Source: Elusimicrobiota bacterium
GTDB lineage: Bacteria; Elusimicrobiota; Elusimicrobia; UBA1565
Direction of reading: 5' to 3'
NCBI GenBank assembly: GCA_041660925.1
Contig: JBAZVI010000003.1
Coordinates: 221,832 to 285,831 of the forward strand
DNA: 64,000 bases
Below the pieces are notes generated by a model. The model did not search any database and had not been told where the DNA came from. It saw only the letters and a list, made by a program, of their open reading frames with translations. Positions 11,245-26,900 of this stretch are shown here, in pieces; positions within the stretch are counted from its first letter, which is position 1, and every line of letters starts with the position of its first letter. The position numbers and the translations under genes are program-made.

Positions 11245-13028
11245 GCGGCCTCCTTCCCCGCGCGGACGCGGGGTCTGAGCACGCGCCGGTAGCGCGTTTT
11301 GACGGCGTTGGACGGCGAGAGGAACTGGTCGGAGCCGAAGGGCTTGAAGCGGCGGGTCGCCAGGCGCACGAGGCGCGAGATGACGCCCTTGCGCGCGTGG
11401 CCGAAGACGGAGTAGAGGAACATCAGGAGCTCGATGTGGACGCTGTCCACCTCGAGGGTCGGCTGGATGCGCTCGAGCGTCTCGGTGACCGCGCGCGTCG
11501 AGTCCATGATCTGGCGGTCCTTCGCCTCCCAGGAGAGCCCCCCCACCTCGTCGAAGCGCTCGGAGTAGGCGCTGACGAACTCGTCGGCGGAGAACGGGTC
11601 GAGGGCGCCGGCCGGCGCCGGACGCAGGGACACGCCGAAGCGCCCCGGGGTGCGGTAGAGCGGCGAGCCGGGGTAGAGGTAGAAAGGGTTGAGAGAGTGC
11701 ACGTCGATGCAGTCGCGGTGCTCCTCGAGGAAGCGCACGGTGTCCGCGACGTCCGCGGGGGTCTCCGTGGGCAGGCCGCCGATGATCTCGATGTGGTTCC
11801 AGATCCCCAGCGCGTGGGAGCGGCGCAGGAAGCGCGAGGCGCGCTCGGGGGTCGTCCCCTTGCGGATGTAGCGCAGCAGGCGCGCGCTGCCCGTCTCGAG
11901 CCCGAAGGTCAGCTTCACCGCGCCCGATTCCCGCATCTTCTCGAGGAGGCGTTCGTCGAGCTGGCGGAAGTTCACGCAGTCGCACCACTGCAGGCCGAGC
12001 CGCGCGCGGACCATGCGCCCGCAGAGCTCGAGGGCGAAGTCGTAGTGGTTGTTGAAGTTCGCGTTGATGAAGTAGACGCCGGTGGCGCCCTGGTCCTTGA
12101 GCGCGCGCAGGTGCTCGACGACCTCGGCCGGGGTGCGGCGGTCGCTGCGGGTCTGGCTCGAGCAGAAGATGCACTGCCCCGCGCAGTGGGACTCGAAGCG
12201 GCTCATGAGCACGAGCTGCTCCCTGCCCCCGTGCTCGGCGAGGAGGCGGCGGAAGGCGGGGCCGGAGGCGTTGTAGCTCGCCAGGATGCGCCGCCCCGTG
12301 CGCCGGTAGAGCTCGAGCGGGTAGCCGCGGTAGTCGGGGAAGGTCAGCGGCGGATAGTGGCCCTGCATGACGCCCTTGAGGACGCGGCCCGAGGACGTAC
12401 GGCGGTAGACGTTGAAGGGCAGGCGGCGCTCGCGCTCGACGACGGCGTGCGCGAGCTGCTCGAGCTCGCGCTCTCCCTGGATGACGACGGCGTAGTCGAA
12501 GCAGGGATAGTCGCGCAGGATCTCGTAGTAGAGCTGCTTGGAGACGTCCTTGTGCCCGATGACGACCGGCTTGCCCGTGCGCCGGCGGATCTCGTCGGCG
12601 AGGAGCGCGGCCGCGTTGAGCAGGAACGGCGTCTTGAGGTCGGCCAGGGTGAGGCCGTAGAGGTCGGCCTCGGGAAGGGCGTCGCAGAGCGGCGCGAGGG
12701 CCGCGGCGGCCGCCTCGAGGGAACGGGCGCCCTTTCCCTTGAGCTTCCCGGAGAGCCACCGGGCGACCGCGTGCGGGTCGCGCAGCAGCGAGAAGTCGGT
12801 CCAGGGGTGCGCCGGCTTCACCTTGAGATGGAAGGGCACGTCGAAGTCGTGGAGCGTCGTGTCGATGCGCTTGCGGCGCAGGTGGGCCGCCAGCGTCGGG
12901 ATCGAGATGTTCGGGACGGGGAAGCACTCGTTGTTGCGCGTCTCGGCCGGCGGGACGATGAGCGCGACTCTCGCCCTGCGCGGGCGGTCCGCGGACGCTT
13001 TCTCCCGCGCCGGGCGACCGTGTGCCAT
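11241..13028 (-). CDS. B12-binding-domain radical SAM protein (595 aa)
   Basis: N-terminal B12-binding-like region (RVALIVPP..) followed by the CxxxCxxC radical SAM cluster motif (CAGQCIFCS) and a TIM-barrel-like remainder. Confidence 0.8.
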   Translation of the reverse strand: MAHGRPAREKASADRPRRARVALIVPPAETRNNECFPVPNISIPTLAAHLRRKRIDTTLHDFDVPFHLKVKPAHPWTDFSLLRDPHAVARWLSGKLKGKGARSLEAAAAALAPLCDALPEADLYGLTLADLKTPFLLNAAALLADEIRRRTGKPVVIGHKDVSKQLYYEILRDYPCFDYAVVIQGERELEQLAHAVVERERRLPFNVYRRTSSGRVLKGVMQGHYPPLTFPDYRGYPLELYRRTGRRILASYNASGPAFRRLLAEHGGREQLVLMSRFESHCAGQCIFCSSQTRSDRRTPAEVVEHLRALKDQGATGVYFINANFNNHYDFALELCGRMVRARLGLQWCDCVNFRQLDERLLEKMRESGAVKLTFGLETGSARLLRYIRKGTTPERASRFLRRSHALGIWNHIEIIGGLPTETPADVADTVRFLEEHRDCIDVHSLNPFYLYPGSPLYRTPGRFGVSLRPAPAGALDPFSADEFVSAYSERFDEVGGLSWEAKDRQIMDSTRAVTETLERIQPTLEVDSVHIELLMFLYSVFGHARKGVISRLVRLATRRFKPFGSDQFLSPSNAVKTRYRRVLRPRVRAGKEAA

Positions 13029-13261
13029 GGGCCAGATGATAGCAAACGCCCCGCCCCGCCCGAGGGCCCGCCCGATTCTCCCTCCCTCTTCGAGAGTTCG
13101 CGCTATCGGTTCCCTTACGGCGCGATCGCGGCACTATCAGCGTCTGGGTGTCGCCGAGGGTTAGGGGTGGGTAGAACGGATGGCTGTTTCGGCTGGGGTC
13201 AGCCGCCGCTGCGCGTTGCGGTGGGCGGGTGGGCGGTGGAGCCTCAAGGGTTCATGCAAGG

Positions 13262-14260: not shown

Positions 14261-14283
14261 GCAGAATCCCGAAGGGATTCTGC
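14261..14283 (-). terminator. Hairpin GCAGAATCCC-gaa-GGGATTCTGC abutting the glnN stop codon (possible terminator or 3' stabiliser)
   Basis: 10-bp perfect inverted repeat whose last bases overlap the glnN TAG; there is no T-tract, so its function is uncertain. Confidence 0.4.
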
Positions 14284-16439
14284 TACAGGAGGTTGAGCAT
14301 GTCCCGGTACTTGGGCAGCGGCCAGTAGCGGTGCTCGACGGCCTGCTCGGTGCGGTCGCAGGCCGAGCGCATCTCCGAGAGGGTCTCGACGCCCGCGCCG
14401 GCGAAGACCTTCGCGCGCTGGACCATGTCGGTCTCGGCGCCGGCCTTCTCGAGGACCTTCTCCGCGCCGTCGGCGCCCGCGTAGAGCTCGGCGAGCAGCC
14501 CGCCGAACTCCGCGAGCTTCGCCTTGAGCTCCTTGCCGCCCTTCGCGGACTCCAGGCGCCCGGCCGCCGAGCCGTAGAGGTCGATCTGGCGCACGAGCGC
14601 GGGCGCGATGTCGGTGACGATGAGCTCGCGGAGCTGGCGCAGCTCGATCTCCTTGAGCTTCACGTAGGCCTCGAGCTTGATCTCGTGCTTAGCCTCGAGC
14701 TCGTGCTTCGAGAGGACCTTGTAGCGCTCGTAGAGCTCGACGACGGCCTTCTCGACGAAGGTCTCGAGCGCGTCCGGGGTGTTCTTGGCGTTGGGCAGGC
14801 CGCGGCGCGCCGCCTCCCTGTGCCACTCCTCGGAGTAGCCGTTGCCCTCGAAGCGGATGCGCTTGGTCTCCTTGACCAGCTCGCGCACGACGTCGAGCGC
14901 GCGCTTCGTGAAGTCCTCGTCGCCGGCGTGCTTCTCGAGCTTCTCCAGCACGCGGTCGAGACCGTCGGCGACCGCCAGGCAGAGGGCCGTGGCCGGCTCC
15001 GCGATGCTCTGCGAGGAGCCGACGGCGCGGAACTCGAACTTGTTGCCGGTGAAGGCCAGCGGCGAGGTGCGGTTGCGGTCGGAGTTGTCGAGCACGATGC
15101 TCGGCAGGCTCTTGAGGCCGTGCCCGATGGCCTCGCGCGAGGCGTCCTTGGACAGAGAGCCCTTCTCGATGTCGGTGAGGAGGCGGTCGAGGTACTCTCC
15201 GAGGTAGACGGACATGATGGCCGGCGGAGCCTCGTTGGCCCCGAGCCGGTGGTCGTTGCCCGCGTCGGCGACGGCCGCGCGCAGGAGCCCCCCGTACTTG
15301 TTCACGCCGGCGAGGAAGGCGGCCAGGTAGACGAGGAACTGGATGTTCTTCTTGGGGGCCGCGCCGGGCTCGAGGAGGTTCTGCCCCTCGCTATCCGCCA
15401 TCGACCAGTTCAGGTGCTTGCCGCTGCCGTTGATGCCCGAGAAGGGCTTCTCGTGTAGGAGCAGGGCGAAGCCGTGGTCGTCGGCCGTCTTGCGCATGAT
15501 CTCCATGAGCTGGAGGTTGTGGTCGATGGCCAGGTTCGCGGTCTCGAAGATCGGCGCGAGCTCGAACTGGTTGGGCGCGACCTCGTTGTGGCGCGTCTTG
15601 GCCGGGATGCCGCGCTCGAAGAGCGCGCGGTCGAGGTCCGTCATGAACTCGAGGACCTTGGGCTGGATGGAGCCGAAGTAGTGGTCCTCGAGCTGCTGCT
15701 GCTTGGCGGAGGCGGCGCCGAAGAGCGTGCGGCCCGCGTAGACGAGGTCCGGGCGCCGGCGGTAGAACTCCTTGCGCACGAGGAAGTACTCCTGCTCGGG
15801 TCCGATGGTCACGCGCACGTTGCGCGCGGTGCGGTTGCCGAAGAGCTTGAGGAGCTTGAAGGCGCGCTCCTCGACGACGCGCACGGCGCGCAGGAGCGGG
15901 GTCTTCATGTCGAGCGTCTCTCCGGTCCAGGAGAGATAGACCGAGGGGATGACGAGGGTCGCGCCCTTCCCGTCGCTGTTCTTAAGGAGGAAGGCCGGGG
16001 AGGTCGGGTCCCACGCGGTGTAGCCGCGGGCCTCGAAGGTCGAGCGCATGCCGCCCGAGGGGAAGGAGGAGGCGTCGGGCTCGCTCTGGATGAGCTGGCG
16101 GCCGGAGAAGCGGTCGATGGGCTGGCCGGTCTCGTCGAAGCTCAGGAAGGAGTCGTGCTTCTCGGCGGTGACGCCCCGCTGCGGCTGGAACCAGTGGCAG
16201 AAATGGGTCGCGCCCTGTGAGATGGCCCACTCCTTCATGGCGTGGGCGACCTCGTCGGCGATCTCGACCTCGAGCTTCTCGTCGTTCTCGATGACGTCGA
16301 GGATCTGCTGATAGGTGGCCTTGCTCAGGTTCCGGGCCATCGCCTTCTTGTCGAAGGTCAGGGCGCCGTAGTCCGCGAAGAGGCCTTTCGATTCTTTCAC
16401 CAGGTTGACTCCGTTTTGCGAGATTTGCGCGCTCGGCAT
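14283..16439 (-). CDS. glnN: Glutamine synthetase type III
   Basis: Its length and N-terminal sequence resemble Bacteroides GlnN (MPSAQISQ..HFCHWFQPQRGVTAEKHDSF..QSEPDASSFPSGGMRSTFEARGYTAWDP). The ORF begins at a TTG 11 codons upstream; the ATG at 16439 was chosen as the start. Confidence 0.9.
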   Translation of the reverse strand: MPSAQISQNGVNLVKESKGLFADYGALTFDKKAMARNLSKATYQQILDVIENDEKLEVEIADEVAHAMKEWAISQGATHFCHWFQPQRGVTAEKHDSFLSFDETGQPIDRFSGRQLIQSEPDASSFPSGGMRSTFEARGYTAWDPTSPAFLLKNSDGKGATLVIPSVYLSWTGETLDMKTPLLRAVRVVEERAFKLLKLFGNRTARNVRVTIGPEQEYFLVRKEFYRRRPDLVYAGRTLFGAASAKQQQLEDHYFGSIQPKVLEFMTDLDRALFERGIPAKTRHNEVAPNQFELAPIFETANLAIDHNLQLMEIMRKTADDHGFALLLHEKPFSGINGSGKHLNWSMADSEGQNLLEPGAAPKKNIQFLVYLAAFLAGVNKYGGLLRAAVADAGNDHRLGANEAPPAIMSVYLGEYLDRLLTDIEKGSLSKDASREAIGHGLKSLPSIVLDNSDRNRTSPLAFTGNKFEFRAVGSSQSIAEPATALCLAVADGLDRVLEKLEKHAGDEDFTKRALDVVRELVKETKRIRFEGNGYSEEWHREAARRGLPNAKNTPDALETFVEKAVVELYERYKVLSKHELEAKHEIKLEAYVKLKEIELRQLRELIVTDIAPALVRQIDLYGSAAGRLESAKGGKELKAKLAEFGGLLAELYAGADGAEKVLEKAGAETDMVQRAKVFAGAGVETLSEMRSACDRTEQAVEHRYWPLPKYRDMLNLL

Positions 16440-16534
16440 TGTAAAAATAGCAGAAAATGCCGAATTTCGCAATACCTAAGTCTTGTTTAGCGGAAAAATC
16501 ACATGAAGAAGCTACAAATATCGATTTAAAGCCA

Positions 16535-16636: not shown

Positions 16637-17452
16637 TCAGTCCCAGCGGATGTCGCTCTGCAGCGCCGCCATCGGCTTCTTGAGGTCCTCGCGGAAGCTG
16701 ATCTTCGACTGCTGGAGTTCCTTGAAGAGCCCGTCGCCCTGGACGAAGTAGCGGCTCGTGCCCTCGGTGTACTTCACCGCGGTCTCGATCTTCCAGGAGA
16801 GCTTCACGGTCATGCCGGCGATGGGGTCCTCGGGCTGCGCGACGTTGATGATGCTCGTCGGCGGCACCTCGGCCTTCATGGAGAACTTGTACGCCCACAG
16901 GACGTTCACCTGGAGCGGCTCGATGGTGACGTTGGTGAGGTACTTGCCCTTCCCCTTGTAGTTCCCGCCGTAGCAGCGCGTCACCTCGAAGCGCACGTCG
17001 ATGGTGTTGGCGCCGTACATGTTCTTGGCGGTGAGCTGGTAGACCCGCCCTTCCGGCGGGCGCCAGCCGCCGAGCTGCGCCCAGTGGGTGATCCCGTCGG
17101 GGACGGCCGCCGCGTAGGTCGTCTGCACGTCGACGACCGGCTTGTTGTTCTCGATGATCTGCCAGATCTGCTGTCCGATGTTGATGATCTGGCCGATGTC
17201 GATGTCGCCGCCGATGGGCGGGACGCCGCCGCCCACGGGGGGCAGGTCGCCGGGCCCGTCGGGCATCCCGCCGTGGGGATGGATGCTCGGGCCCTCATCC
17301 TTGAGGACGATGGAATTGGGGTCGATGGTATACGCCAAGGGGTCCAGTTTCGCGGCCTGGACTTCCAGGGGAGAGAACGACGGCTTCTGTGGGGTCTGCT
17401 GCGCCTGGGCGTTGACGCCGACGGCGAGCACGAATGCGAGCAGTGCCTGCAT
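16637..17452 (-). CDS. Secreted hypothetical protein (signal peptide MQALLAFVLAVGVNAQA)
   Basis: Protein-like composition (W, Y, K, N, Q-rich) and a Gly/Pro-rich linker; the competing ORFs overlapping it are low-complexity. Confidence 0.55.
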   Translation of the reverse strand: MQALLAFVLAVGVNAQAQQTPQKPSFSPLEVQAAKLDPLAYTIDPNSIVLKDEGPSIHPHGGMPDGPGDLPPVGGGVPPIGGDIDIGQIINIGQQIWQIIENNKPVVDVQTTYAAAVPDGITHWAQLGGWRPPEGRVYQLTAKNMYGANTIDVRFEVTRCYGGNYKGKGKYLTNVTIEPLQVNVLWAYKFSMKAEVPPTSIINVAQPEDPIAGMTVKLSWKIETAVKYTEGTSRYFVQGDGLFKELQQSKISFREDLKKPMAALQSDIRWD

Positions 17453-17649
17453 ACCACCTCCGTTCGGACCTCCGTCCCTTCTCGGGGTGCGAAGCGATCG
17501 GGCATCGGGCCGAAGGTCCTTATCATGTTAGCACAAGGACCTATGTTCAGGAAGGGTAAGGCGGCCCATCCATTTCTGAGCCCTAGGGCCTAGGTTGTTG
17601 AGTCCTCCCACTGCGGGGTGCTTGACCCGGGGCGACAGGAACCCTATCC

Positions 17650-19044
17650 TTGGGTGCGCGCATGATCCGGGAAGCGGACCTCCTTCAGCTCGTCCTCGCG
17701 GCCTCCGCCCTCCGGGCAGGGCTGCTGGCGTTCGCCCGGCCGCGCTTCGCCCCCAGCGCCTCTCCCCACGGCGCGCTGGCGGCCTGCGAGGAGGAACTCT
17801 TCACGCTCCGCCGGGCCTCCTCGGCGCTGTGGGCCTTCGTCCTCCTCGACTCCCTGCTGCGCACCTACGTCGCATACTGGGCGCTGCGCCCTCCGGTCTC
17901 CTGGGGGCTGCTGGCGTGGACGGCGGGCAGCGACGTCGTCCTCGCCTTCGCGGCCGCCGGGCTCCGTCGACCCGGGCGCTGCCTCGCGGCGCCGCTCCTG
18001 CATCCTCTGAGGCTCCTGGCTGCCGCGCTCTCCGGCGGGTCGGCCTTCCACGACGACGGCCGGAGCCTGCTCCTCCCTCGCGGAGGGCCTCTGCCGAGCG
18101 TCCTCCCCGCGCCGCTCGCCGACAACGGGACCTGCGCGGCGTGGCTCTCCGAGCTGACGGGCGCGGCTCCGAGCGACGTCCTCCGCGGCCTGCGCGACGA
18201 GGAGCTCTGGCCGGGCTCGCGCGTGCGCGAAGCCCTCGCGCGGCTCGGCGTCCGGCCGCACGAGCGGAGCGCGGAGCTCGAGCGCTATTGCGCGGAGACC
18301 GGAGACTTCCTTTATGAGCTCGTGCTTTGGAACCGCTGCCGCTTCAAGCTCGGGATGCGGGCGCGGATCATGGCGGCCCTCGGGACCGCGGGCCCGAAGC
18401 CGCTGCGGGTCCTCTGCTTCGGCGACGGTCTGGGAGCCGACGCCGCATGCCTGAGCGCGCTCGGGCACGCGGTGGAGCACTGGGAGCCTGCGCCGGCGTG
18501 CCGCGCCTTCGCCCGGAGGCTCTTCGCGGCCGAGGGCCGCGCGGTCCGCGTGCTGGAGCGCGAGCCCGCAGAGACGGGCGCCTACGACGCCGTCGTCTGT
18601 CTCGACGTCCTCGAGCACGTCCCCGACCCTCCGGCGCTCGCCGCGCGCTTGAGCGCGCTGTTGAGGCCCGGCGGCCGGCTCTTCGTCCACGCGCCCTTCG
18701 GCATCCTCACTCCGGAGGCGGGCACGCACCTGCGCTCCAACCGCGTCTACTTCGGGCGTCCCGAGCGCGTGTTCCCCCCGGAGCTGCGCCTCGCGGGCGG
18801 GGAGCCGCTCTTCTGGGCGCCGGTCGTCTTCGAGAAGAGTCCCGGGGCGGCCGCCCTCCCTCCCGCCTTCCGCGCGAGCGCGCTTCTCATGCGCTGCGGC
18901 GTCTACGCTTTCGCGTGGAGGATGCTCGTCGAGGTCCCCGTCCGCTGGGCCAACCTCATCTCCCTGAGCGCGTTGCGCCGTACCTTCTTCGAGGCCTCGC
19001 GGCTGGCGCCGTTTTGCTCCTCGGACGGGGAGGTCCGTCCGTGA
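17650..19044 (+). CDS. Membrane-anchored class I SAM-dependent methyltransferase; the N-terminal TM region is paralogous to a segment of the downstream GT21-Lnt protein
   Basis: C-terminal Rossmann MTase motifs (LRVLCFGDGLGADA .. DAVVCLDVLEHVPDP .. LLRPGGRLFVHAP). An upstream TTGACC-N17-TATCCT promoter-like sequence is present. Stop overlaps the next gene start (GTGA). Confidence 0.6.
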   Translation: MGARMIREADLLQLVLAASALRAGLLAFARPRFAPSASPHGALAACEEELFTLRRASSALWAFVLLDSLLRTYVAYWALRPPVSWGLLAWTAGSDVVLAFAAAGLRRPGRCLAAPLLHPLRLLAAALSGGSAFHDDGRSLLLPRGGPLPSVLPAPLADNGTCAAWLSELTGAAPSDVLRGLRDEELWPGSRVREALARLGVRPHERSAELERYCAETGDFLYELVLWNRCRFKLGMRARIMAALGTAGPKPLRVLCFGDGLGADAACLSALGHAVEHWEPAPACRAFARRLFAAEGRAVRVLEREPAETGAYDAVVCLDVLEHVPDPPALAARLSALLRPGGRLFVHAPFGILTPEAGTHLRSNRVYFGRPERVFPPELRLAGGEPLFWAPVVFEKSPGAAALPPAFRASALLMRCGVYAFAWRMLVEVPVRWANLISLSALRRTFFEASRLAPFCSSDGEVRP

Positions 19045-21749
19045 GCGCGTTCGGCTCCCCGCAGACGCTCGCGGCCGCGCTCGCGCTCGCCGCGGCTCAG
19101 CTCACGGCGCTCGGGCTCTTCCTGCGGCGGCTGCGCACACGCGCCGCGCCGGGTGCGGGGGCGCCGCCGTCGGCGGCCGTCATCGTCCCCTGCGCCGGAC
19201 CGGTCGCGGACCTCGAGGGAGCCGTGCGCTCCTACCTCGCGCAGGACTATCCCGGTCGCGTGGAGTTCCTCTTCGTGACCCCGTCGGCCTCCGACCCGTC
19301 CCACGCGGCGCTCGAGCGCCTCCTCGCGGGGGAGCCGCGGGCGCGGCTCCTCGCCTCCGAGGTCTTCCCGACGCGCTGCAGCGGCAAGTGCGCCGACCTC
19401 GCGTTCGCGGTGCGCTCGGCGGGCTCCTGCGAGCTCCTCGTCTTCGCGGACGCCGACCAGCGGGTCCCGCGCGGCTGGTTGCGCGCGCTGACGGCCCCGC
19501 TCGCCGACGCGTCGGTCGCCGCGGCCACGAGCGCCGCGCTCCCCGTGCCGCGCGCCGCGGCCCCGGCCTCCTGGCTCCACGCGGCGTGGCAGGGCTTCGG
19601 GCTCCCGTACCTCGCGCTCTCGGGGAGCGTCTGCGGGCAGTCGCTCGCGCTGCGGCGCGCGGACTTCGAGTCCTGGGGCGTCGCGGAGCTCTGGGAGCGC
19701 AGCTTCTCCGACGACCTGTCTCTGAGCGTCCTTCTCGCGCGCAGGGGCGCGCGTGTCCGCTTCGTCGGCGAGGCCATGCCCGAGGGCGGCTCGCCGTCGT
19801 CGCTCGCGGGGGTCTTCGCGCTGACCTCGCGCTGGTTCTTCACCTTCCGCGTCTATCGTCCGGGCGTCTGGGGAATGGGGCTCGCGCTCGTCTTCGCGAA
19901 GCTCTGGCTGCTCGCCTGGGCGCTCGGCGCCCCGGTCTCCTGGGGCCTGCTGTCGCTGCTCTGCGCCTCCGACGCGGTCGCGGCGCTGTTCCTGGCCGCA
20001 CCGGTCGGGAAGGGCTCCGCCGCTCGGGCCGCGCTCGCGCTCCTGTCCGCGGCGGCGGCGGTCCCCCTCATCCTGCTCCAGGCGGCGGGGCTCGCGTCCT
20101 CCGCGCTGCGCGTCGAGGTCCGCTGGGGGACGCGCCGCTATCGCGTACTGGGTCCCGCCGACGTCTGCGTGCTCGAGGGGCCTCCCTTCGTCTCCCCGGA
20201 GCTCCGTGCCGTCCTCGGGGGCGCCGCCGCCGCGGCGTCCTATCTCTTCCCCGCCCTCGGCGTTCTGGGCTTCTTCTGCTACGTCCCGCTGCTCGCCTTC
20301 GCGCGCGAGGGTCCGCCGCGGCGGGCGTTCCTCCTCGGCTGGCTCTACGGGCTCTCCATGTGGGGGTTCGGGCTGCTCTGGTTCGTCGAGACGCTCCGGC
20401 GCTTCCTCTCGATGGGCGCGTTCGAAGCCGCGCTCCTTCTGCTCCCCTGCGCCCTCTATCACGGCCTCCTGCCCGCCCTCGTCTGCGCACTGCTCGCGTC
20501 CCAGCCGCTCCGGCTTCGCGCGCGCGCGGCCCTCTTCGTCCCCGCCGCTGCGGCGCTCTGGGCCTGCGCGGAGGCGCTCTTCCCGACCCTCTTCCCTTAT
20601 TCCGTGGGCGCGAGCGCGGCCTCGCACCTCCCGTTCGCGCAGGCGCTGGAGTTCGTCGGCCTCGGGGGCCTCTGCGCGGCCGTGCTCCTCGTCAACGGGC
20701 TCGTCCTGTCGGGGCTCGAGGCCTTCGGCCGGCGCGAACGGCGAGCCGCCGCCGCGGCCCTTTGCGTCGCGCTGACGCTCGCCGCCGCGCTCGAGGCGTC
20801 GGGCCGCGCCCGGATGGCGCGCATCGACGCGCGCGTCTTTGCCGCGCTCGCGCGCGGCGAGGGCTTGCGGGTCGTCGCCGTCCAGGGCGCGTTCCCGGGC
20901 GGGTGGCGGCTGCGCGACGGGCGCCGCTCCCCCGAGCGATTCGAGGCCTATCGGGACTCGACCGCGGGGCTGCGCGGACGCGGCGGCGCCGACCTCGTCG
21001 TCTGGCCGGAGTATTCCTACCCGGGCGTCGTCTCCTACGCGTCGCCGGCGGACCCTTCGGGCGCGAGGCTCGACGGCCCGGAGGCGGCCGCGCTGATGAG
21101 CCTCCTGCCGCGGGGCGCCGACCTTCTGCTCAGCAGCGAGGCGCGCCGCGCAGGGAGCCGCGGCGTCGCCGCGTTCCTCCTCGGACCTTCCGGGAGCGTG
21201 CTCGGCGTCTCCGAGAAGTCCCGGCTCGTCCCCTTCGGAGAGTATCTCCCGGTCCCGGGTCTCGACGCCCTGATGGCGCGCCTGAGCCCCCGCACCGAGC
21301 GCATGTCGGTCGGGCGGCCCGGGCTGCTGCGCACGCGCGCCGGAGTCCGCGTAGGCACGCTCATCTGCTACGAGGACCTCTCCCCGCCGGCGGCGCGGGA
21401 GCTCGCCGCGGCCGGGGCCGAGCTCTTCGCCAGCGTCGGCAGCGACGCGTGGTTCGTCCCCGCGGCGGCGCGCCTGCATCTGCGGCAGTCCGTCCTGCGC
21501 GCGGTGGAGAACCGGCGCTTCCTCGTGCGTGCGCTCGACGACGGCTGCAGCGCCGTCGTGGATCCCGTCGGGCGGGTCCTGGTCGGGTTCTCTCCGGAGG
21601 AGGCCGGCGCGCTCGGGCGGGAGGTCGCGCGTTCGAGCGGGGCGACGTGGTACGCCCGCGCCGCCGGCGCGTTCGGCCGGCGGCCGGCCGTCCTGGTCGT
21701 GCTCCTCTTCGTCCTGGCCGTTCTGGCTCCGCGCCGCCCGGAGCATTGA
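19041..21749 (+). CDS. Fusion protein: GT21-like (ceramide-glucosyltransferase/HpnI-like) GT2 glycosyltransferase domain + complete apolipoprotein N-acyltransferase (Lnt: polytopic membrane domain + CN-hydrolase domain + C-terminal TM)
   Basis: GTG start at 19041 overlapping the upstream stop. GT motifs VIVPCAG..QDYP..SDPS..SGKCADL..FADADQ. Lnt CN-hydrolase motifs VVWPEYSYPG..LICYEDLSPP..ELFASVGSDAWF. The ORF upstream of 19041 and the two giant overlapping ORFs (18903..22103 minus; 19388..21787 plus) are R-rich junk. Confidence 0.7.
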   Translation: MSAFGSPQTLAAALALAAAQLTALGLFLRRLRTRAAPGAGAPPSAAVIVPCAGPVADLEGAVRSYLAQDYPGRVEFLFVTPSASDPSHAALERLLAGEPRARLLASEVFPTRCSGKCADLAFAVRSAGSCELLVFADADQRVPRGWLRALTAPLADASVAAATSAALPVPRAAAPASWLHAAWQGFGLPYLALSGSVCGQSLALRRADFESWGVAELWERSFSDDLSLSVLLARRGARVRFVGEAMPEGGSPSSLAGVFALTSRWFFTFRVYRPGVWGMGLALVFAKLWLLAWALGAPVSWGLLSLLCASDAVAALFLAAPVGKGSAARAALALLSAAAAVPLILLQAAGLASSALRVEVRWGTRRYRVLGPADVCVLEGPPFVSPELRAVLGGAAAAASYLFPALGVLGFFCYVPLLAFAREGPPRRAFLLGWLYGLSMWGFGLLWFVETLRRFLSMGAFEAALLLLPCALYHGLLPALVCALLASQPLRLRARAALFVPAAAALWACAEALFPTLFPYSVGASAASHLPFAQALEFVGLGGLCAAVLLVNGLVLSGLEAFGRRERRAAAAALCVALTLAAALEASGRARMARIDARVFAALARGEGLRVVAVQGAFPGGWRLRDGRRSPERFEAYRDSTAGLRGRGGADLVVWPEYSYPGVVSYASPADPSGARLDGPEAAALMSLLPRGADLLLSSEARRAGSRGVAAFLLGPSGSVLGVSEKSRLVPFGEYLPVPGLDALMARLSPRTERMSVGRPGLLRTRAGVRVGTLICYEDLSPPAARELAAAGAELFASVGSDAWFVPAAARLHLRQSVLRAVENRRFLVRALDDGCSAVVDPVGRVLVGFSPEEAGALGREVARSSGATWYARAAGAFGRRPAVLVVLLFVLAVLAPRRPEH

Positions 21750-21783
21750 CACCGATGGACGGCGCTGGTAAACTTCAACTGCG

Positions 21784-22689
21784 ATGAACGAGGATCCGAC
21801 GCGCGAGCCGCCGCCGGAGGAGCGCCGGCAGAGCAGCTTCCTCATGTGGCTGATGCTGCTCCCGCTCGTCGGGACGCTCGGCGTCGGCGTGTGGCTCGTC
21901 AGCCGGCCCGGGCCCGAAGGACAGGGCGACAGCTTCAACGCCTTCAACCTCTCCGAAGTCCCGAAGGACTCCCAGCCGAAGGTCCCGACCGGCGGCCCTT
22001 TCTCCGCACCGATGCCTTCGCCGAAAGACGCCGCCCCCGCCGCTCCCGGCGGACCGGGACTCTCCGGCTTCGTGCCCGAGTCCGATCCGCTCTTCACGGC
22101 CAAGGGCGGGGCGAAGGGCCCGCAGACGACCTCGCAGCGCGAGCAGGATTTCCTGAAGAAGAACGACGCAGCCCTGCGCGACTACCAGAACCGCGTCCTC
22201 GGCCCCCTCGCCGCCAGATACTTCAAAAAGTCCGCCGTCGTGCGCGAGGTGGACGCGGCGTTCGGCAAGCTCGGCCGCTACATGGACGCCTGCGCCCAGT
22301 ATCAGAAGGACCGGGATCCCTACAAGTGGGCGCGCAGCGTCGCGGGGATGCCCGAGGTGCGTCAGACCGTGGTCAAATATGCCCTGCGTCCGGACGTGTG
22401 GAAGGTCGCGGTCGGCATGAGCATGGAGGCCATGAAGAGCCCTCCGCCGAAGGCCATCAACGACGAGTTCACGCGCTTCCTGAGCTCGGATAAGGCGGTC
22501 GGCAGCGCCCTCTCGGAGGTCACCCAGCAGATCATGCCGAACATGACGGCCCTCATGAAGCAGGGCATCCCGCCCGGCCTCGACATCAGCCCCCTGACGA
22601 AGCTCACGGGCGCCATCGTCCCCGGTGGAGCTCCTCCCCAAACGCAGACGAGCCCCGCCCCTCCTCGCGGAGGGACGGGGCGTCGTTGA
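21784..22689 (+). CDS. Hypothetical membrane-anchored protein (N-terminal TM, Pro-rich linker, globular C-terminus)
   Basis: Protein-like composition (K/Q/N/F/Y/M); one TM helix WLMLLPLVGTLGVGVWLV. Confidence 0.55.
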   Translation: MNEDPTREPPPEERRQSSFLMWLMLLPLVGTLGVGVWLVSRPGPEGQGDSFNAFNLSEVPKDSQPKVPTGGPFSAPMPSPKDAAPAAPGGPGLSGFVPESDPLFTAKGGAKGPQTTSQREQDFLKKNDAALRDYQNRVLGPLAARYFKKSAVVREVDAAFGKLGRYMDACAQYQKDRDPYKWARSVAGMPEVRQTVVKYALRPDVWKVAVGMSMEAMKSPPPKAINDEFTRFLSSDKAVGSALSEVTQQIMPNMTALMKQGIPPGLDISPLTKLTGAIVPGGAPPQTQTSPAPPRGGTGRR

Positions 22690-22711
22690 GCGGCGCTTCC
22701 GGCTCGAGCGC

Positions 22712-23005
22712 CTAGTTGCTGCTGCCGCTGCCGCCGCAGCACCCGCTCGACTTGCTGGCGTTGTCGGCTTCGTTCTGCAGCTGCTGCTTCTCGGACGAGA
22801 AGTTGTTCTGGGCCTGCTTGTAGCCGGCCTGATAGCCGCTGTCGTAGCTGTTCTGCGACGTCGCGCTGTTCGACGCGGTGGCGGCGGTCGCCTTGCTCGC
22901 CGTCGGCGTGTCCTGCGCGCCGGTGCGCGAGACGGCCAGCGCTCCGAGGGTCGCCAGGGTGAGGGCGGCCACGGCGATCTTGATCTTCAGGATTCTCGCG
23001 TTCAT
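22712..23005 (-). CDS. Small secreted low-complexity protein ending in ..SSGCCGGSGSSN
   Basis: Signal peptide MNARILKIKIAVAALTLATLGALA; RBS GAGAGGA before the ATG; TATAAT -10 on the minus strand about 45 nt upstream. Confidence 0.5.
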   Translation of the reverse strand: MNARILKIKIAVAALTLATLGALAVSRTGAQDTPTASKATAATASNSATSQNSYDSGYQAGYKQAQNNFSSEKQQLQNEADNASKSSGCCGGSGSSN

Positions 23006-23120
23006 ATCATCCTCTCTCGTGGGCGGCTACTTGCCGCGCCGATACCCGATTATAGCCGAAAACGTCTCGCTCATGCATAGGGTAAGGACTTAGGACCCCC
23101 TTCCACAAGGGACTAAAGTC

Positions 23121-23939
23121 CTATTTTTTCTGGGCCCCCCCTTCGGGGAGGGCTCCGGCGGGGACGCTCGGGAGTCCCGTCATGGACGGCAGGCGCACGC
23201 CCTTCAGGCAGAGGGTCACGACGGCGGCGTCGAAGAACATCCCGAAGAGGATCCCGGTGGCCAGGCCGTCGGGGGAGGAGCGCTGGGTGTAGTAGCTCCA
23301 GCAGCCGTTGGTCGTCCCCCAGAGGTCGGCGAAGAACACCAGGACGAGACCGGTCGCGAGCGTCCAGAAGTCCTCCGCGGAGCTCCGCGCCAGGAGCGCC
23401 CAGGCCAGCAGGGCGAGCAACAGCGCGTCGGCGGGGTCGGCCGAGACCGAGAAGACGAAGATCCCGAAGACGAGGAGGAAGAGTCCCGAGAGGATGCGGT
23501 AGCCGCGGTGCTGGGCCTCCTCGGAGAGGAACCTTCCCAGGCGCCCGCGCGCGGCCCGCGCGAGCCGGTCGATCACCAGCGTCCCCGCCGTCCAGGCGGG
23601 CACGATCCAGAGCGGCGGGGTCTCGCGCGTGTAGTAGACCCAGAGCCCGCCGCGCGTCCCCCAGGTCTCGGCCAGATAGCCGGCCAGCGTGGCGGCCAGC
23701 GCGGCCGGGAGGTCGCGCCGCGGCTCGAAGTCCGCGGCGAGCGCGCGCAGCACGAGGGCGAAGATCCCTGCGAGCAGGGCGATCTCGGCGAGGACTTTGG
23801 TCCGCGCGGCTCCGCCCTTTCCAAGCTGGACGAGCGTCACGCGGGCGGCCTCGGCGACGAGGTCGTGGCGCCAGAGGGCGATGAGGAGGATGAGCGCGGC
23901 GAAGGCGGCTGCGAGGGCCCGCTCGCGCGTGAGCTTCAC
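23121..23939 (-). CDS. Hypothetical polytopic membrane protein with a two-fold internal repeat (WVYYTRE / WSYYTQR modules), co-transcribed with lgt
   Basis: GTG start overlapping the lgt stop (GTGA); hydrophobic helices; the long N-terminal part of ORF 23121..25226 is junk. Confidence 0.5.
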   Translation of the reverse strand: MKLTRERALAAAFAALILLIALWRHDLVAEAARVTLVQLGKGGAARTKVLAEIALLAGIFALVLRALAADFEPRRDLPAALAATLAGYLAETWGTRGGLWVYYTRETPPLWIVPAWTAGTLVIDRLARAARGRLGRFLSEEAQHRGYRILSGLFLLVFGIFVFSVSADPADALLLALLAWALLARSSAEDFWTLATGLVLVFFADLWGTTNGCWSYYTQRSSPDGLATGILFGMFFDAAVVTLCLKGVRLPSMTGLPSVPAGALPEGGAQKK

Positions 23940-24718
23940 CGTGCGGACTTCCAGCGGCGCGCGAGGAGCGCGGCGGCCGCGAGCGTCGCCAGCGAGGACC
24001 ACTGCGAGGTGGTCAGGCCGGATGCGTCGAGGATCCCTCCCTCCCCCCCGCGCGTGAAGTCGAGCACGAAGCGCAGGACCGCGTAGAGCGCGGCGCTCGC
24101 GCAGAAGAGGGCGCCCGGGAAGAGGGTTCCGCGACGGAGCGCCGGCGTCAGGCGCAGGTGCAGGAAGAGGAATATCCCCAGCGCGCCCGCCGCCTCGTAG
24201 AGCTGGCTCGGGTGCAGCGGGACGCCGAGCAGGCGGTCGGGCACCGCGCAGCGCGGGTCGTGGAAGACGAGGGCCCAGGGCAGGTCCGTCGGTCGGCCGT
24301 GGCAGCAGCCGTTGAGGGTGCAGCCCAGGCGCATCAGCGCGAGCCCGAGCGGGGCGGCGGTCCCGAACATGTCGGCGACGCCGCGGAAGTCGACGCGTCG
24401 GCGCAGGCAGTAGAGCCCGGCGAGCGCGAAGGCGCCCCAGAAGCTGCCGTAGAAGGCCCCGCCCGGGAAGGCCCGGCGGCGGGTCATGAAGCGGAGGTTG
24501 TGCTCGAGGCCCCCGCCATAGAGGAAGAGGTAGGCGAGCGCCGCGCCGAGCATCGTGCCCAGCGCCAGGCGGAGGATGAGCCCCCAGAAATCCTCCTCGG
24601 AGAGGGCCGCGGGGCGGTTGCGCGCGCAGTAGAAGTAGGCGAGCAGGCCGCTCAAGCCCGCGAAGACGGGGGCGGAGAGGACCTGCCAGCCGCCGAAGGC
24701 GAGGAGGATCGGTCGCAT
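23936..24718 (-). CDS. lgt: Prolipoprotein diacylglyceryl transferase
   Basis: Lgt signature HPSQLYEA, polytopic membrane protein, 260 aa. Confidence 0.85.
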   Translation of the reverse strand: MRPILLAFGGWQVLSAPVFAGLSGLLAYFYCARNRPAALSEEDFWGLILRLALGTMLGAALAYLFLYGGGLEHNLRFMTRRRAFPGGAFYGSFWGAFALAGLYCLRRRVDFRGVADMFGTAAPLGLALMRLGCTLNGCCHGRPTDLPWALVFHDPRCAVPDRLLGVPLHPSQLYEAAGALGIFLFLHLRLTPALRRGTLFPGALFCASAALYAVLRFVLDFTRGGEGGILDASGLTTSQWSSLATLAAAALLARRWKSAR

Positions 24719-24785
24719 GCGGGCCTATTCTACAACAAGGCGCCTCTCCCGACGCCTCAAAACATGCGACAATCCCCCCGTGGAT

Positions 24786-24812
24786 GGAACTTTTTCGCCC
24801 CCTCGCCCGTAA
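24786..24812 (+). promoter_or_regulatory. Putative ECF-type promoter GGAAC-N17-CGTAAC upstream of the ECF sigma operon (possible autoregulation)
   Basis: tggatGGAACtttttcgccccctcgccCGTaacc read in the sequence, about 20 nt before the GTG start at 24831; it fits the AAC-N16/17-CGT class of ECF promoters. Confidence 0.4.
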
Positions 24813-24830
24813 CCGGGGGGCGGAGGGCGA

Positions 24831-25382
24831 GTGGATCAGGCTGGGTGCGAGCGCTACGAGCAGTTCGTCCGGAGCCACGGCGAGAGGGCGTTCCGCTTCG
24901 CCTACCGGCTCGCGGGCGACGCGGAGGAGGCGAAGGAGGTCGTGCAGGACGCCTTCTTCCGTCTGTTCCGCACCTGGGAGTGCTACGACCCCTCCCAGCC
25001 GCTCGAGGCCTGGTTCACGGTCATCCTGCGCAACGTTTTTCTCGACGGCCGCCGGCGCTACGAGCGGCGGCACACCGTCCCGCTCGACGAGGGACCGCGG
25101 GACGGGGAGGAGGAGGGCCGGACGCGGGCCCTCGGGGACGGGGAGCCGCCGCTGCTCGAGGTCCTCGAGCGCGAGGAGGTCTCCGCCCGGGTGCGAGCGG
25201 CGCTCGAGCGGCTGGAGTACGACCACCGAACGGTGCTCACGCTCTGCGACATGGAAGGGTGCAGCTATGAGGAGATCTCGCGGGTCGTGGACGTCCCGGT
25301 GGGCACGGTGCGCTCGCGGCTCAGCCGCGCCCGCGAAGCCCTGCGCCGCGAGCTGCTCTCGGAGGAGGGAGTGACGGCATGA
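24831..25382 (+). CDS. ECF-subfamily RNA polymerase sigma-70 factor
   Basis: Regions 2 and 4 are recognisable (..FRLAYRLAGDAEEAKEVVQDAFFRLF.. and ..LCDMEGCSYEEISRVVDVPVGTVRSRLSRAR); GTG start. Confidence 0.85.
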   Translation: MDQAGCERYEQFVRSHGERAFRFAYRLAGDAEEAKEVVQDAFFRLFRTWECYDPSQPLEAWFTVILRNVFLDGRRRYERRHTVPLDEGPRDGEEEGRTRALGDGEPPLLEVLEREEVSARVRAALERLEYDHRTVLTLCDMEGCSYEEISRVVDVPVGTVRSRLSRAREALRRELLSEEGVTA

Positions 25383-25846
25383 ACTGCATCGAGCGTGAAG
25401 TCCTCTCGGCGTACGCGGACGGGGAGTGCGTCTCCTCCGAGCGCGAGACCGTCGAGAAGCACCTCCCCGCCTGCGCGGACTGCCGCGCCCGGCTCGCCGA
25501 GCTGCGCGCGCTGAAGGGCGCCGTGGCCTCCGCGTTCCCCTCGCCCTCCCTCTCTCCCGCGCTCGCCCGCGCGCTCCTCGAGCCGGGAGCGCGCCGCCGC
25601 GGCTGGGGCGAGGCCCTCCGCGCGCTGCGCGAGAGCCTCCTGCGGCCCGCGGCCGGCTTCGCCTTCGCGGCGGCGGCGCTCGCGCTCGGCGTATGGTTCA
25701 CCCGCGTCGACGAGCCTCTCGGGGCGCCCGAGCTCCCCGTGGAGCTGCTGCTCTGCGCGCATGAGGATTACGCCCGCACCCTCCCCCTCGCCGCGCGCGA
25801 GGCCGCTCCGCTCTCCGCGGACGACGACGAGGCGGCCGATGATTAG
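25379..25846 (+). CDS. Anti-sigma factor with zinc-finger motif (HLPACADC = HxxxCxxC) and one TM helix
   Basis: Position immediately after the ECF sigma with an ATGA overlap, plus the H-x3-C-x2-C motif. Confidence 0.7.
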   Translation: MNCIEREVLSAYADGECVSSERETVEKHLPACADCRARLAELRALKGAVASAFPSPSLSPALARALLEPGARRRGWGEALRALRESLLRPAAGFAFAAAALALGVWFTRVDEPLGAPELPVELLLCAHEDYARTLPLAAREAAPLSADDDEAADD

Positions 25847-26900
25847 GACCCGCGTCCTTCTTTCCGCGCTCCTCGCCGCCGCTCCGACGGCGGCGCTCGC
25901 CGGGCCGCGCGCCGCGGCCGCGGCGAAGCCCGAGGCCGCCGCCGAGACGCTTCTGCGCGCGACCCTCGCACCGCCGCGGCGGGCCTGGGACGGCGAGCTC
26001 GTCGTCGAGAACCGCGCCGGAGGCGTCGTGGAGCGTCGGACGGTGAAGGCCCTCTTCTCCCCTCCGGACCTGCGGCGGCGCGAGGCGCTCTACCCGGACG
26101 GCCGCGTGCGCCTGCTCATCGTCTCCGACGGCCGGGTGGAGTGGGTCTACGACGCCGCGCGCGGGCTCGCGCTCAAGGGCGAGCCCGCCGACCCTGACGT
26201 CAAGCTCCTCGACCCCGACGAGGAGCTCGAGCTCCTGCTGCGCAGCCACGAGCTCCGGGAAGGGGACGGAGAGCGCGTCGCCGGACGCGAAGCGCGCGTC
26301 CTCGAGCTCTTCCGCCGCGCCGACGGGAAGCTCTCCCTGCGCCTGTGGGTGGACGCGCGCGAGGGTCTCGTGCTCAAGCGCGAGGCCTACGGCGCGGACG
26401 GCGAGCCGCCGCTCGTCTCCGAGTTCCGCGCGGTCGTCTTCTCCAGCGCCATCGCCCCGGCGGCCTTCTCCTTCGTCCCCCCCCGGGGGGTGCGCGCGCG
26501 CGAACGCCGCTGGCGCGGCGATTTCCTCGACCTCGAGGAGGCTGAGGCTCAGGCCGGGATGCCGCTCATGCTTCCGCGGCGTCTGCCGGAAGGTTTCGTC
26601 CTGGAGAGCGTGAACGTCCTCCCCTACAAGGGAGCTTCGATCCTCCATGCCCGCTTCACCGACGGGGTCGGCCTGCTCTCTCTCTTCCAATACCCGCGCA
26701 CGGCGCGCCTGCGCCTCGGCTGGGGGAAGCTCGGCCGTCCGAAGAGCGTGCGCGTAGGGGTCTCCCCCGGGCGCATGGCGGCGACCGGGGACGGGAAGAT
26801 CCTCGACTGGAAGGGGGCGCGCTTCCGCTTCGTGCTCATCGGCCCGGGCTCGGCCGAGGCCCTGCGCCGGGTCGCCGAGTCGATCGAGGAGGTCCCATGA
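25839..26900 (+). CDS. Periplasmic MucB/RseB-like or LolA-fold protein (sigma-regulon accessory)
   Basis: Signal peptide MIRTRVLLSALLAAAPTAALA; start overlaps the anti-sigma stop. Family assignment rests on operon position and size only. Confidence 0.5.
   Translation: MIRTRVLLSALLAAAPTAALAGPRAAAAAKPEAAAETLLRATLAPPRRAWDGELVVENRAGGVVERRTVKALFSPPDLRRREALYPDGRVRLLIVSDGRVEWVYDAARGLALKGEPADPDVKLLDPDEELELLLRSHELREGDGERVAGREARVLELFRRADGKLSLRLWVDAREGLVLKREAYGADGEPPLVSEFRAVVFSSAIAPAAFSFVPPRGVRARERRWRGDFLDLEEAEAQAGMPLMLPRRLPEGFVLESVNVLPYKGASILHARFTDGVGLLSLFQYPRTARLRLGWGKLGRPKSVRVGVSPGRMAATGDGKILDWKGARFRFVLIGPGSAEALRRVAESIEEVP

Follow-up and report, generated by a model that had tools for sequence, protein, structure and literature searches.

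Why would a glycosyltransferase that looks like the enzymes that build glycolipids be joined to the enzyme that completes bacterial lipoproteins? The question is raised by a gene in a 64-kb stretch of DNA from an Elusimicrobiota bacterium, with a G+C content of about 70%; by "the window" we mean this whole stretch. The gene encodes a protein of 902 amino acids (aa) in which a glycosyltransferase (GT) similar to family GT21 is followed by a full apolipoprotein N-acyltransferase (Lnt). Lnt is the final enzyme of bacterial lipoprotein maturation and is a drug target. Our best reading is that the gene is part of a lineage-specific lipoprotein-acylation locus in which Lnt would be physically coupled to a lipid glycosyltransferase, and judging from the sequence comparisons below, we give this reading an even chance of being right.

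A glycosyltransferase and an Lnt in one polypeptide

The open reading frame (ORF) has 902 codons plus a stop, with zero internal stops, and it starts with a GTG that shares bases with the TGA stop of the upstream gene (19042-19044), as GTGA. Pfam places Glyco_transf_21 (PF13506) on aa 116-265, with 42.2 bits against a cut-off of 21.7, and Glyco_tranf_2_3 on aa 43-268; it places LNT_N (PF20154) on aa 394-554 and CN_hydrolase (PF00795) on aa 647-870. The glycosyltransferase is complete to aa 378, the Lnt is complete from aa 386, and a linker of about 8 residues joins the two. An AlphaFold2 model of the 902-aa protein, with 133 relatives in the alignment, is confident throughout (pLDDT 91.3, pTM 0.84). 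These results confirm that a single polypeptide joins a domain like GT21 or ceramide glucosyltransferase to a full Lnt. A preliminary description of this DNA, made from the sequence alone, had proposed just this (a GT2/GT21-like domain and then a full Lnt in 902 aa), and Pfam, NCBIfam, the structure model, and the alignments all agree with it. It had also suggested a check with domain hidden Markov models, which we ran: PF13506 and the Lnt model TIGR00546 score above their cut-offs, and PF20154 and PF00795 match as well.

Because the source is a metagenome-assembled genome (MAG), we considered whether the long ORF might be an artefact of assembly or a frameshift that fuses two separate genes. 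We found no support for this. Identical copies of the 902-aa protein are recorded in NCBI and in Logan, 15 other clusters from independent samples share the single-ORF architecture, and the structure model is unbroken and confident across both halves. Given the identical records, the 15 clusters, and the continuous model, an artefact is effectively excluded.

In the model, the glycosyltransferase half begins with a transmembrane (TM) helix, continues with a GT-A domain and five membrane helices, and ends in a beta-hairpin. It contains D85, D137-x-D139, D225, and SRW277; in an alignment of 16 glycosyltransferase sequences, D85, D139, D225, and W277 never vary, and D137 hardly does. It shares a full-length architecture (N-terminal TM helix, GT-A domain, and C-terminal helical membrane module) with the ceramide glucosyltransferase UGCG (family GT21; PDB 26qf) and with HpnI, as well as D, DxD, D, and (Q/R)xxRW-type motifs. 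A profile of this half and its relatives matches the solved ceramide glucosyltransferase 26qf_A over its full length (15-382 versus 21-385 of 394, E = 1.6e-22), so the assignment in the preliminary description to a ceramide-glucosyltransferase/HpnI-like class holds. The motifs that it had picked out are present as well: QDYP is at aa 68-71; the motif that it called DDPA-like reads SDPS and includes the invariant D85; and the NPK-like one is SGK116...L120, which varies little or not at all within the family. PF00535 scores 18.4 bits on this half, which is under its cut-off of 23.3.

The glycosyltransferase does not appear to be HpnI itself. The model TIGR03472 for HpnI, the bacteriohopanetetrol glucosamine glycosyltransferase, aligns over its full length (aa 10-371) yet scores only 91.1 bits, far under the equivalog cut-off of 310, and the window genes that we examined include none that we could identify as a hopanoid gene, so we rejected membership in that family. 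Specifically, neither the scanned window genes nor the gene tables for the related loci showed a hopanoid neighborhood (shc, hpnH, hpnJ, or hpnK), and none of the window genes examined was recognized as a sphingolipid gene. To our knowledge, neither UGCG nor HpnI occurs as a fusion to Lnt.

The C-terminal half has the layout of Lnt: a polytopic LNT_N domain, a periplasmic CN-hydrolase domain, and a C-terminal TM helix. The NCBIfam equivalog model for lnt (TIGR00546) matches aa 436-845 with 177 bits, above its cut-off of 132.9, and by Foldseek this half of the model matches the Lnt structures 8aq2, 5n6m, and 5vrg with target TM-scores of 0.77-0.82. When the protein is aligned to the Lnts of Escherichia coli and Pseudomonas aeruginosa, WPE (E657), K726, PFGEY (E734), and C776-Y777-E778 are kept. 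These residues correspond to the E267-K335-C387 triad of E. coli plus E343, Y388, and E389. More broadly, the window Lnt has the same fold, topology, and E-K-C triad as the E. coli and P. aeruginosa enzymes (PDB 5N6H, 5N6M, 5VRG, and 8B0K), and the equivalents of W237, E343, Y388, and E389 also match; it differs in being just 22-25% identical to them, in bearing a 385-aa N-terminal glycosyltransferase, and in sitting next to lgt. Judging by these alignments, the C-terminal half is a complete Lnt that carries its catalytic residues.

How widespread is the fusion? When 1.84 billion cluster representatives (with clusters counted at 50% identity) were searched exhaustively with HMMER, 15 other full-length fusions were found. 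These are 815-1078 aa long and are 33-41% identical to the window protein in one stretch over aa ~10-895. A sixteenth match to the fusion, P0031, is truncated. The next-ranked matches are glycosyltransferases that stand alone (about 385 aa, at most about 47% identical) and Lnts that do so (about 520 aa, at most 40%). All of the fusion members that bear a name are from Elusimicrobiota MAGs, where they are annotated merely as "apolipoprotein N-acyltransferase." So the fusion is rare, genuine, and, among the named members, confined to Elusimicrobiota. A scan of genome contigs with the glycosyltransferase alignment gave no fusions and turned up distant glycosyltransferases only (33% identical in one Elusimicrobiota MAG and 28-32% in Acidobacteriota), and word-index protein searches, which are weak on proteins that are rich in alanine and glycine, returned 7 and 1 matches. 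In the literature, we found no description of a GT21-Lnt fusion, nor anything relevant on the lipoprotein enzymes of Elusimicrobia.

In neighbor-joining trees of the glycosyltransferase and Lnt halves, fused and unfused forms are intermixed and the fusions are not monophyletic; these trees are poorly resolved, with distances above 1. Such mixing is compatible with repeated fusion and fission of neighboring genes, and we draw no firm conclusion about the number of events.

The Lgt block and its conserved partners

We retrieved nine related loci and searched them with the window proteins. The window shares four genes with L083, L085, L087, L090, L093, L094, and L095: Lnt, an Lgt-family gene, a membrane protein of about 250-280 aa, and an N-terminally anchored protein of about 300 aa. 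In eight further loci, Lgt is within 0-5 kb of Lnt (at a distance of up to about 5 kb in the window, L085, L087, L090, L093, and L094). In L083, lgt is divergent from the fusion and 36 bp apart from it, and in L095, the fusion is in one operon with lgt and the membrane protein, and the genes overlap by 4 bp. The preliminary description had linked the fusion to the lgt of the window, and with the further loci this link has become much stronger.

The glycosyltransferase is fused to Lnt or lies in its operon in all of the compared block loci except L090, which has two Lnts and no glycosyltransferase. In L094, a second Lnt follows the fusion. L093 (1045-6816; Logan SRR28401809) has an unfused operon with 4-bp overlaps that encodes, in order, the glycosyltransferase, a B12-binding radical SAM protein with DUF4070, and two Lnts. 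(SAM is S-adenosylmethionine.) In L092 (1477-6365; Logan SRR22388273), just two genes with a 4-bp overlap encode four catalytic domains: the first gene (P0053) has a NodB-type polysaccharide deacetylase (PF01522) fused ahead of the first TM helix of a GT21-like glycosyltransferase, and the second joins a DUF418/YeiB-like domain to Lnt. A stand-alone DUF418 gene in L085, 5 kb from the fusion, is 35% identical to the fused DUF418 domain of L092. As judged from these gene arrangements, the glycosyltransferase is repeatedly joined to or co-transcribed with Lnt, and Lnt is repeatedly linked with Lgt. Together, the L093 operon, the L092 overlap, and the mixing of fused and unfused forms in the trees argue for a functional linkage of the glycosyltransferase and Lnt that goes beyond the fusion itself.

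The Lgt of the window is a variant. The Pfam LGT match covers positions 17-237 of the 240 in the profile, and the protein is under the NCBIfam cut-offs (65.7 versus 118.9 bits for TIGR00544; the other lgt models are also below theirs). Its signature, R-L-G-C-T-L-N-G-C-C-H-G-R, is invariant in six loci. Compared with the E. coli motif R143-x-G-N146-x-x-x-G-E151, using an alignment to 5azb, it keeps R143, G154, and R239 and has the replacements N146C, E151C, and H103Y. According to a 2026 survey, N146C, E151C/D, and H103Y/W/F occur in genuine Lgts of distant phyla (PMC13251419). So we do not count these substitutions against a normal Lgt role, and we no longer take them as a sign of a non-functional or re-purposed paralogue. 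One part of the preliminary description, that the pathway may be non-canonical, is weakened: the Lnt passes the equivalog model, and the substitutions in Lgt are documented natural variants (PMC13251419).

The other two members of the block belong to no family that we could find, as neither has a match in Pfam or NCBIfam. Homologues of the 272-aa membrane protein (247-284 aa) are directly after lgt in L083, L085, L090, L093, L094, and L095, usually in translational coupling through a 4-bp overlap; the exception is L087, in which a flavoprotein gene lies between lgt and the gene for the membrane protein. The protein contains two copies of an internal repeat (E-x-WGTRxGLWxYY and D-x-WGTTxxCWxYY), and the acidic residues E52, D76, E91, D190, D205, and D237 are invariant in its family. 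A single-sequence structure model of it was too poor for use (pLDDT 46.6). Homologues of the ~300-aa protein are present in all of the compared block loci and in L092, always in the block, and they share the motifs GPGLxGFVPE, VVREVDxAFGxLPRYMA, ALPEVR, and PPPK. No lspA was seen in any of the compared loci.

The block also tends to include small proteins. Eleven ORFs in five related loci, of 67-135 aa, are homologous to the 97-aa protein of the window, which makes twelve in six loci with the window. Their N-terminus is signal-like and ends in S-P-R/K; they also contain a YxxGYxxGY stretch, and their tail is acidic or rich in Ser and Gly. No residue in them is invariant except Met1 and a cysteine that is located at, or close to, the C-terminus (...GGCCG, ...SGCS, ...SCA, or ...SCG). 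In L095, a GGCCGG/GGGCGG motif is instead found after a signal peptide or a canonical lipobox. These Cys-tailed proteins may be dedicated substrates of the locus, or they may be metal-active or thiol-active proteins. Along with the lgt-coupled membrane protein and the ~300-aa protein, they are candidates for the missing steps in how deep-branching bacteria make lipoproteins.

What about the gene just upstream of the fusion? The preliminary description saw it as a class I SAM methyltransferase with a membrane anchor and a GTGA overlap, and the Pfam matches, the hydrophobic helices (aa 7-25 and 83-101), and the overlap bear this out. Methyltransf_23, 11, 12, and 25 of Pfam match aa 236-345 of the 460-aa protein (PF13489, 51.5 versus 27 bits; PF08241, 37.6 versus 21.2), and the glycine-rich motif I reads VLCFGDGLG. 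In the NCBI record, the protein starts at an ATG at 17662; it could instead start at a TTG at 17650. The first ~125 residues share homology with aa 228-354 of the glycosyltransferase, a stretch that takes in the end of the GT-A domain and the membrane helices. BLASTP aligns aa 8-124 of the methyltransferase to aa 228-316 of the fusion (31% identity, E = 3e-7), tblastn finds this similarity too, and hhalign matches the N-terminal module to the glycosyltransferase profile with a probability of 92.7% (E = 4e-7). In contrast, the catalytic part (aa ~150-430) resembles stand-alone enzymes of about 300 aa that do not have the N-terminal membrane module; these are 39-47% identical, and the named ones are from Planctomycetota.

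Another protein suggests how this arrangement arose. In P0022, from an Elusimicrobiota MAG, a glycosyltransferase of the same family (~45% identical) is fused directly to a methyltransferase, and the joint is at the exact point where the window protein joins Lnt. The methyltransferase half of P0022 is 38% identical to aa 144-341 of the window methyltransferase (E = 8e-25). Given this fusion and the glycosyltransferase-like N-terminal module, the window methyltransferase looks like a GT-methyltransferase fusion that retained only the membrane module of the glycosyltransferase. It is not a conserved upstream partner, and we rejected this possibility because the gene upstream of P0002 is unrelated and because there is no methyltransferase in L083, L085, L087, L094, or L095. 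So the tie between the glycosyltransferase and methyltransferase families, as seen in these sequences, is real yet not conserved. The preliminary description had suggested that methylation is part of the pathway; the tie to the glycosyltransferase is strengthened by P0022, and the idea that methylation is a conserved part fails, as the methyltransferase is upstream of the fusion only in the window.

What the coupling might do, and other readings

Under our best reading, the 902-aa protein would be a bifunctional inner-membrane enzyme in a subgroup of the uncultured Elusimicrobiota. Its periplasmic nitrilase-type domain would use a membrane glycerolipid as the source of an acyl chain, which it would take up on C776 and then donate to S-diacylglyceryl-cysteine lipoproteins at their free alpha-amino group; these lipoproteins would be supplied by the neighboring Lgt. 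Its cytoplasmic GT-A domain would move a nucleotide-activated hexose or N-acetylhexosamine onto the alcohol of a membrane lipid; candidate acceptors are diacylglycerol-, ceramide-, or hopanoid-like. With both halves in one membrane body, triacylation would be coupled, physically and stoichiometrically, to the synthesis of a glycolipid. The glycolipid would serve the same envelope pathway: it might be a local acyl donor or acceptor for Lnt, or it might be a glycosyl carrier for modifying the lipoproteins. The methyltransferase would be a lineage-specific accessory, given its absence from the other fusion loci. It would be descended from a GT-methyltransferase fusion, with the membrane module of the glycosyltransferase kept as an anchor, and it probably methylates the lipid or sugar product of the glycosyltransferase at the cytoplasmic face.

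The topology that we infer for the two halves is consistent with several features. The N-terminal TM helix of the glycosyltransferase is followed by the positively charged RRLRTR, which suggests that the GT-A domain is cytoplasmic. In the model, the terminal beta-hairpin of the glycosyltransferase returns to the GT-A domain just before the first TM helix of Lnt, and the N-terminus of E. coli Lnt is described as cytoplasmic. The relatives with other partners fit this topology as well: in P0022, a soluble SAM enzyme is at the same junction, and in P0053, the deacetylase is ahead of the first TM helix and so should lie outside the cell membrane. Together, these features point to one membrane body in which the sugar-to-lipid transferase is cytoplasmic and the acyltransferase is periplasmic.

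Such a coupling has a known parallel. In Rv2051c (Ppm1) of Mycobacterium tuberculosis, Lnt is N-terminal and a polyprenol-phosphate mannose (PPM) synthase is C-terminal (PMC3460810). As in Rv2051c and the ppm operon of the Corynebacteriales (Lnt/Ppm2 plus Ppm1), the window has an Lnt that is fused to, or in an operon with, a glycosyltransferase of the GT-A type that acts on lipids. The order is reversed, however (GT-Lnt in the window versus Lnt-GT in Rv2051c). The preliminary description had remarked on this, and the domain positions and the published architecture (PMC3460810) show that it was right. Also, the window glycosyltransferase is polytopic and GT21-like, with six membrane helices of its own, while that of Rv2051c is a soluble, DPM1-like polyprenol-phosphate mannose synthase. 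And the window fusion is from Elusimicrobiota, whereas the Ppm1 coupling is from actinobacteria; the difference in phylum suggests that the coupling in the window originated independently. So we think that the fusion is best read as an analogue of the Lnt-Ppm1 coupling of actinobacteria that arose independently and has the reverse order. The coupling of Lnt to a lipid glycosyltransferase is already known in kind, and what is new is the different family of glycosyltransferase, the reverse order, and the distant, uncultured phylum. The actinobacterial Lnt domain can support the glycosyltransferase without catalysing acylation (PMC3460810), which parallels the fused Lnts of the Elusimicrobiota family that have lost the catalytic glutamate (see below).

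Having more than one Lnt has a precedent as well. Streptomyces have two Lnt paralogues, Lnt1 and Lnt2, in one genome, and similarly, there are tandem Lnt genes in L090, L093, and L094. Unlike those of Streptomyces, the Elusimicrobiota paralogues are adjacent to each other and beside lgt, and one of them is sometimes fused to the glycosyltransferase. As far as we know, nobody has fully explained why Lnt is coupled to a glycosyltransferase in actinobacteria. That such a coupling is found a second time, and independently, suggests that a linkage between N-acylation and lipid glycosylation is a recurring solution rather than a mycobacterial oddity. Also, a single polypeptide is a compact system that can be expressed in E. 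coli, which could be used to test what the glycosyltransferase contributes.

Several observations weigh against our best reading. The catalytic glutamate of Lnt is replaced in 5 of the 15 fusions that we compared (by Q in P0008, P0011, and P0018, by G in P0010, and by D in P0015), and it is H in the DUF418-Lnt protein of L092 (3507-6365). These relatives keep the lysine and the cysteine invariant, and they keep the fusion. In L094, a fused copy without the glutamate is followed by an intact second Lnt. So in some relatives, the fused Lnt may not be the active housekeeping enzyme. There is no second lnt or lgt, nor any lspA, within the 64-kb window, and we count the confinement of this check to the window against us as well. 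The closest stand-alone glycosyltransferase, P0024 (~47% identical to the glycosyltransferase half), does not adjoin an Lnt. The methyltransferase is absent from all five of the fusion loci with a readable upstream gene (L001, L083, L085, L087, and L095) and from L094. Finally, we do not know of any GT21-type enzyme that produces glycosyl carriers for protein glycosylation, which would make the analogy to Ppm1 only an architectural one.

We considered other explanations for the locus. Both halves might act in sequence on one lipid, to give an N-acyl aminoglycolipid: the glycosyltransferase would add N-acetylhexosamine to a membrane lipid, the sugar would be de-N-acetylated at the outer leaflet, and the Lnt-type domain would move a long acyl chain from a phospholipid to the free amine. 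In this window, the product may be methylated too. We think that this is unlikely, although several observations speak for it. P0053 joins a periplasm-facing NodB-type deacetylase to the same family of glycosyltransferase, and the overlapping gene after it encodes Lnt fused to DUF418/YeiB, which we take to be a member of the membrane acyltransferase-3 clan; a homologous DUF418 gene stands alone near the fusion of L085. The tandem Lnt paralogues in L090, L093, and L094 and the variable glutamate suggest that one copy of Lnt has drifted to a different substrate. And the closest named relatives of the glycosyltransferase act on lipids, including HpnI, which, according to its NCBIfam name, transfers GlcNAc that is later deacetylated. 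On the other hand, the window has no homologue of the deacetylase or of DUF418 (tblastn with P0053 matches the glycosyltransferase region only), and the Lnt half of the window protein keeps every canonical residue and passes the equivalog model. The tight and conserved association with Lgt is most simply explained by lipoprotein maturation. Also, we do not know of any demonstration that Lnt can acylate an amine that is not on a peptide.

Or the fusion might be biochemically meaningless. If a glycolipid synthase and a housekeeping lnt were merged by the loss of a stop codon, then the halves would work independently and would share only their expression and their location in the membrane. Close relatives do carry the glycosyltransferase and Lnt unfused, both trees intermix the two forms, and the linker between the complete enzymes is short. 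Nevertheless, the fusion has been kept among proteins that are merely 33-41% identical, the same family of glycosyltransferase has other fusion partners (a methyltransferase and a deacetylase) and is found in operons with Lnt in other arrangements, and AlphaFold places the halves confidently relative to each other (pTM 0.84). The retention of fused Lnt domains without the glutamate suggests that they have a structural role for their partner. So a meaningless fusion seems quite improbable to us. We are even more doubtful that the locus is a system for lipidating or glycosylating its own small secreted proteins, with Lgt, the 272-aa protein, Lnt, and the glycosyltransferase building a lipid or glycolipid anchor on the C-terminal G-C-C-G or S-C-x cysteine. 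It is true that the twelve small ORFs of six loci share a signal-like N-terminus, a Ser/Gly or acidic tail, and the invariant cysteine, that they are always between the ~300-aa gene and the genes on the lgt side (the pair of lgt and the membrane protein, or the flanking gene in L094), and that in L095 the motif comes after a signal peptide or a canonical lipobox. But this evidence is of co-location alone, and there is no such ORF among the called genes of L083. Furthermore, a cysteine at the C-terminus does not provide the free alpha-amino group that Lnt requires, and Cys-Cys motifs would fit metal binding or disulfides equally well. We think it very unlikely that this is what the locus does.

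More broadly, the block might be a self-contained and previously undescribed envelope-lipidation system, in which the Lnt-type domain N-acylates an aminoglycolipid that the fused glycosyltransferase has made and that has been deacetylated, or in which the set of proteins builds a glycolipid anchor on the Cys-tailed proteins. Its parts might then be the glycosyltransferase, one or two Lnts, the Lgt variant, the 272-aa protein, the ~300-aa protein, and the Cys-tailed small proteins. We regard this system, and this list of its parts, as a tentative idea that is probably wrong. If it were true, it would imply a class of substrate that has never been shown for enzymes of the Lnt and Lgt families.

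Coordinates and neighboring genes

Table 1. Features of the fusion locus, with positions in the window unless another locus is named
Feature	Position	Strand	Basis or remark
Sigma-70-like promoter match, TTGACC-17-TATCCT	17622..17650	+	Consensus match only; just upstream of methyltransferase start
Membrane-anchored class I SAM methyltransferase, 460 aa	17662..19044	+	Pfam; identical protein P0161 on record
N-terminal membrane module of the methyltransferase, aa 8-124	17683..18033	+	Homology to the C-terminal membrane module of the glycosyltransferase
GT21-like-Lnt fusion gene	19041..21749	+	902 aa; ORF without internal stop, Pfam, NCBIfam, HMMER, AlphaFold2
Glycosyltransferase half, aa 1-378	19041..20174	+	PF13506, profile match to 26qf_A, invariant residues, secondary structure of the model
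Lnt half, aa 386-902	20196..21746	+	TIGR00546, Foldseek, residue alignment, motif table
Lnt catalytic residues	E657, 21009-21011; K726, 21216-21218; C776, 21366-21368	+	Residue alignment
Promoter-like site of the ~300-aa gene	21746-21774		Consensus match only
Conserved ~300-aa protein	21784..22689	+	One N-terminal TM helix, rest predicted periplasmic
Small secreted or anchored protein, 97 aa, Ser/Gly-rich tail ending ...SSGCCGGSGSSN	22712..23005	-	Homologous small ORFs
Polytopic membrane protein, 272 aa	23121..23939	-	Start overlaps lgt stop (GTGA); no family match
Lgt-family diacylglyceryl transferase, 260 aa	23936..24718	-	Pfam LGT, 127.7 bits, E = 6e-37
Extracytoplasmic function (ECF) sigma factor (24831-25382), zf-HC2 anti-sigma (25379-25846), MucB/RseB-like protein (to 26900)	24831..26900	+	Pfam
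Small ORFs of related loci	L085 15703-16176; L087 13743-14360; L090 4447-5188; L093 9066-9768; L094 16860-17341; L095 15156-15840		

The two promoter-like sites of Table 1 are from a scan of 17300-25000, in which 0.1 would be expected from shuffled sequences; both are consensus matches only. The ECF sigma factor and the two genes after it are divergent from lgt, and the same trio is beside lgt in L085, L087, L090, L093, and L094. Judging from this synteny, the trio is a conserved flank and not a demonstrated part of the system. A 271-aa protein that looks secreted is encoded just upstream of the methyltransferase (16637-17452, -), and a 50%-identical homologue is near the fusion of L094. Similarly, a PD-(D/E)XK nuclease is downstream of the sigma trio both in the window (28666-30186, +) and in L094. 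So the synteny between these two loci reaches past the block.

Two radical SAM proteins came up in this work. The one in the L093 operon is a generic class B protein; its best matches are weak ones to P- and C-methyltransferases, and it is far under the HpnJ cut-off. The window also encodes a 630-aa radical SAM protein (11241-13133, -) with weak similarity to class B (the B12-dependent class); it scores 66.7 bits against the HpnJ cut-off of 577.6. We rejected the idea that the two are orthologues, as they are just 28% identical over 124 aa. P0016 has a C-terminal extension that contains ILHLGSGDG. This looks like a fused methyltransferase, yet the extension has no match in Pfam and no similarity to the window methyltransferase.

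Elsewhere in the window, a 1656-aa ORF (3400-8370, -) has weak matches only, to LAL_C2 (the C-terminal domain of L-amino-acid ligase) and, near its C-terminus, to a Lysine_decarbox/LOG-like domain. The genes for a phytochelatin-synthase-like protein (33705-34706, +), a PlsC-type acyltransferase (30957-32318, +), and a type III glutamine synthetase (14283-16472, -) appear to be ordinary genes with no relation to the fusion. Finally, amino-oxidase-family flavoproteins adjoin the fusion in two of the related loci, and a geranylgeranyl-reductase-like FAD protein adjoins lgt in one. (The coordinates listed for these proteins are L085 12768-14009, L087 8136-9464, and L087 15276-16547.) These flavoproteins may hint at a lipid of the isoprenoid or carotenoid type.

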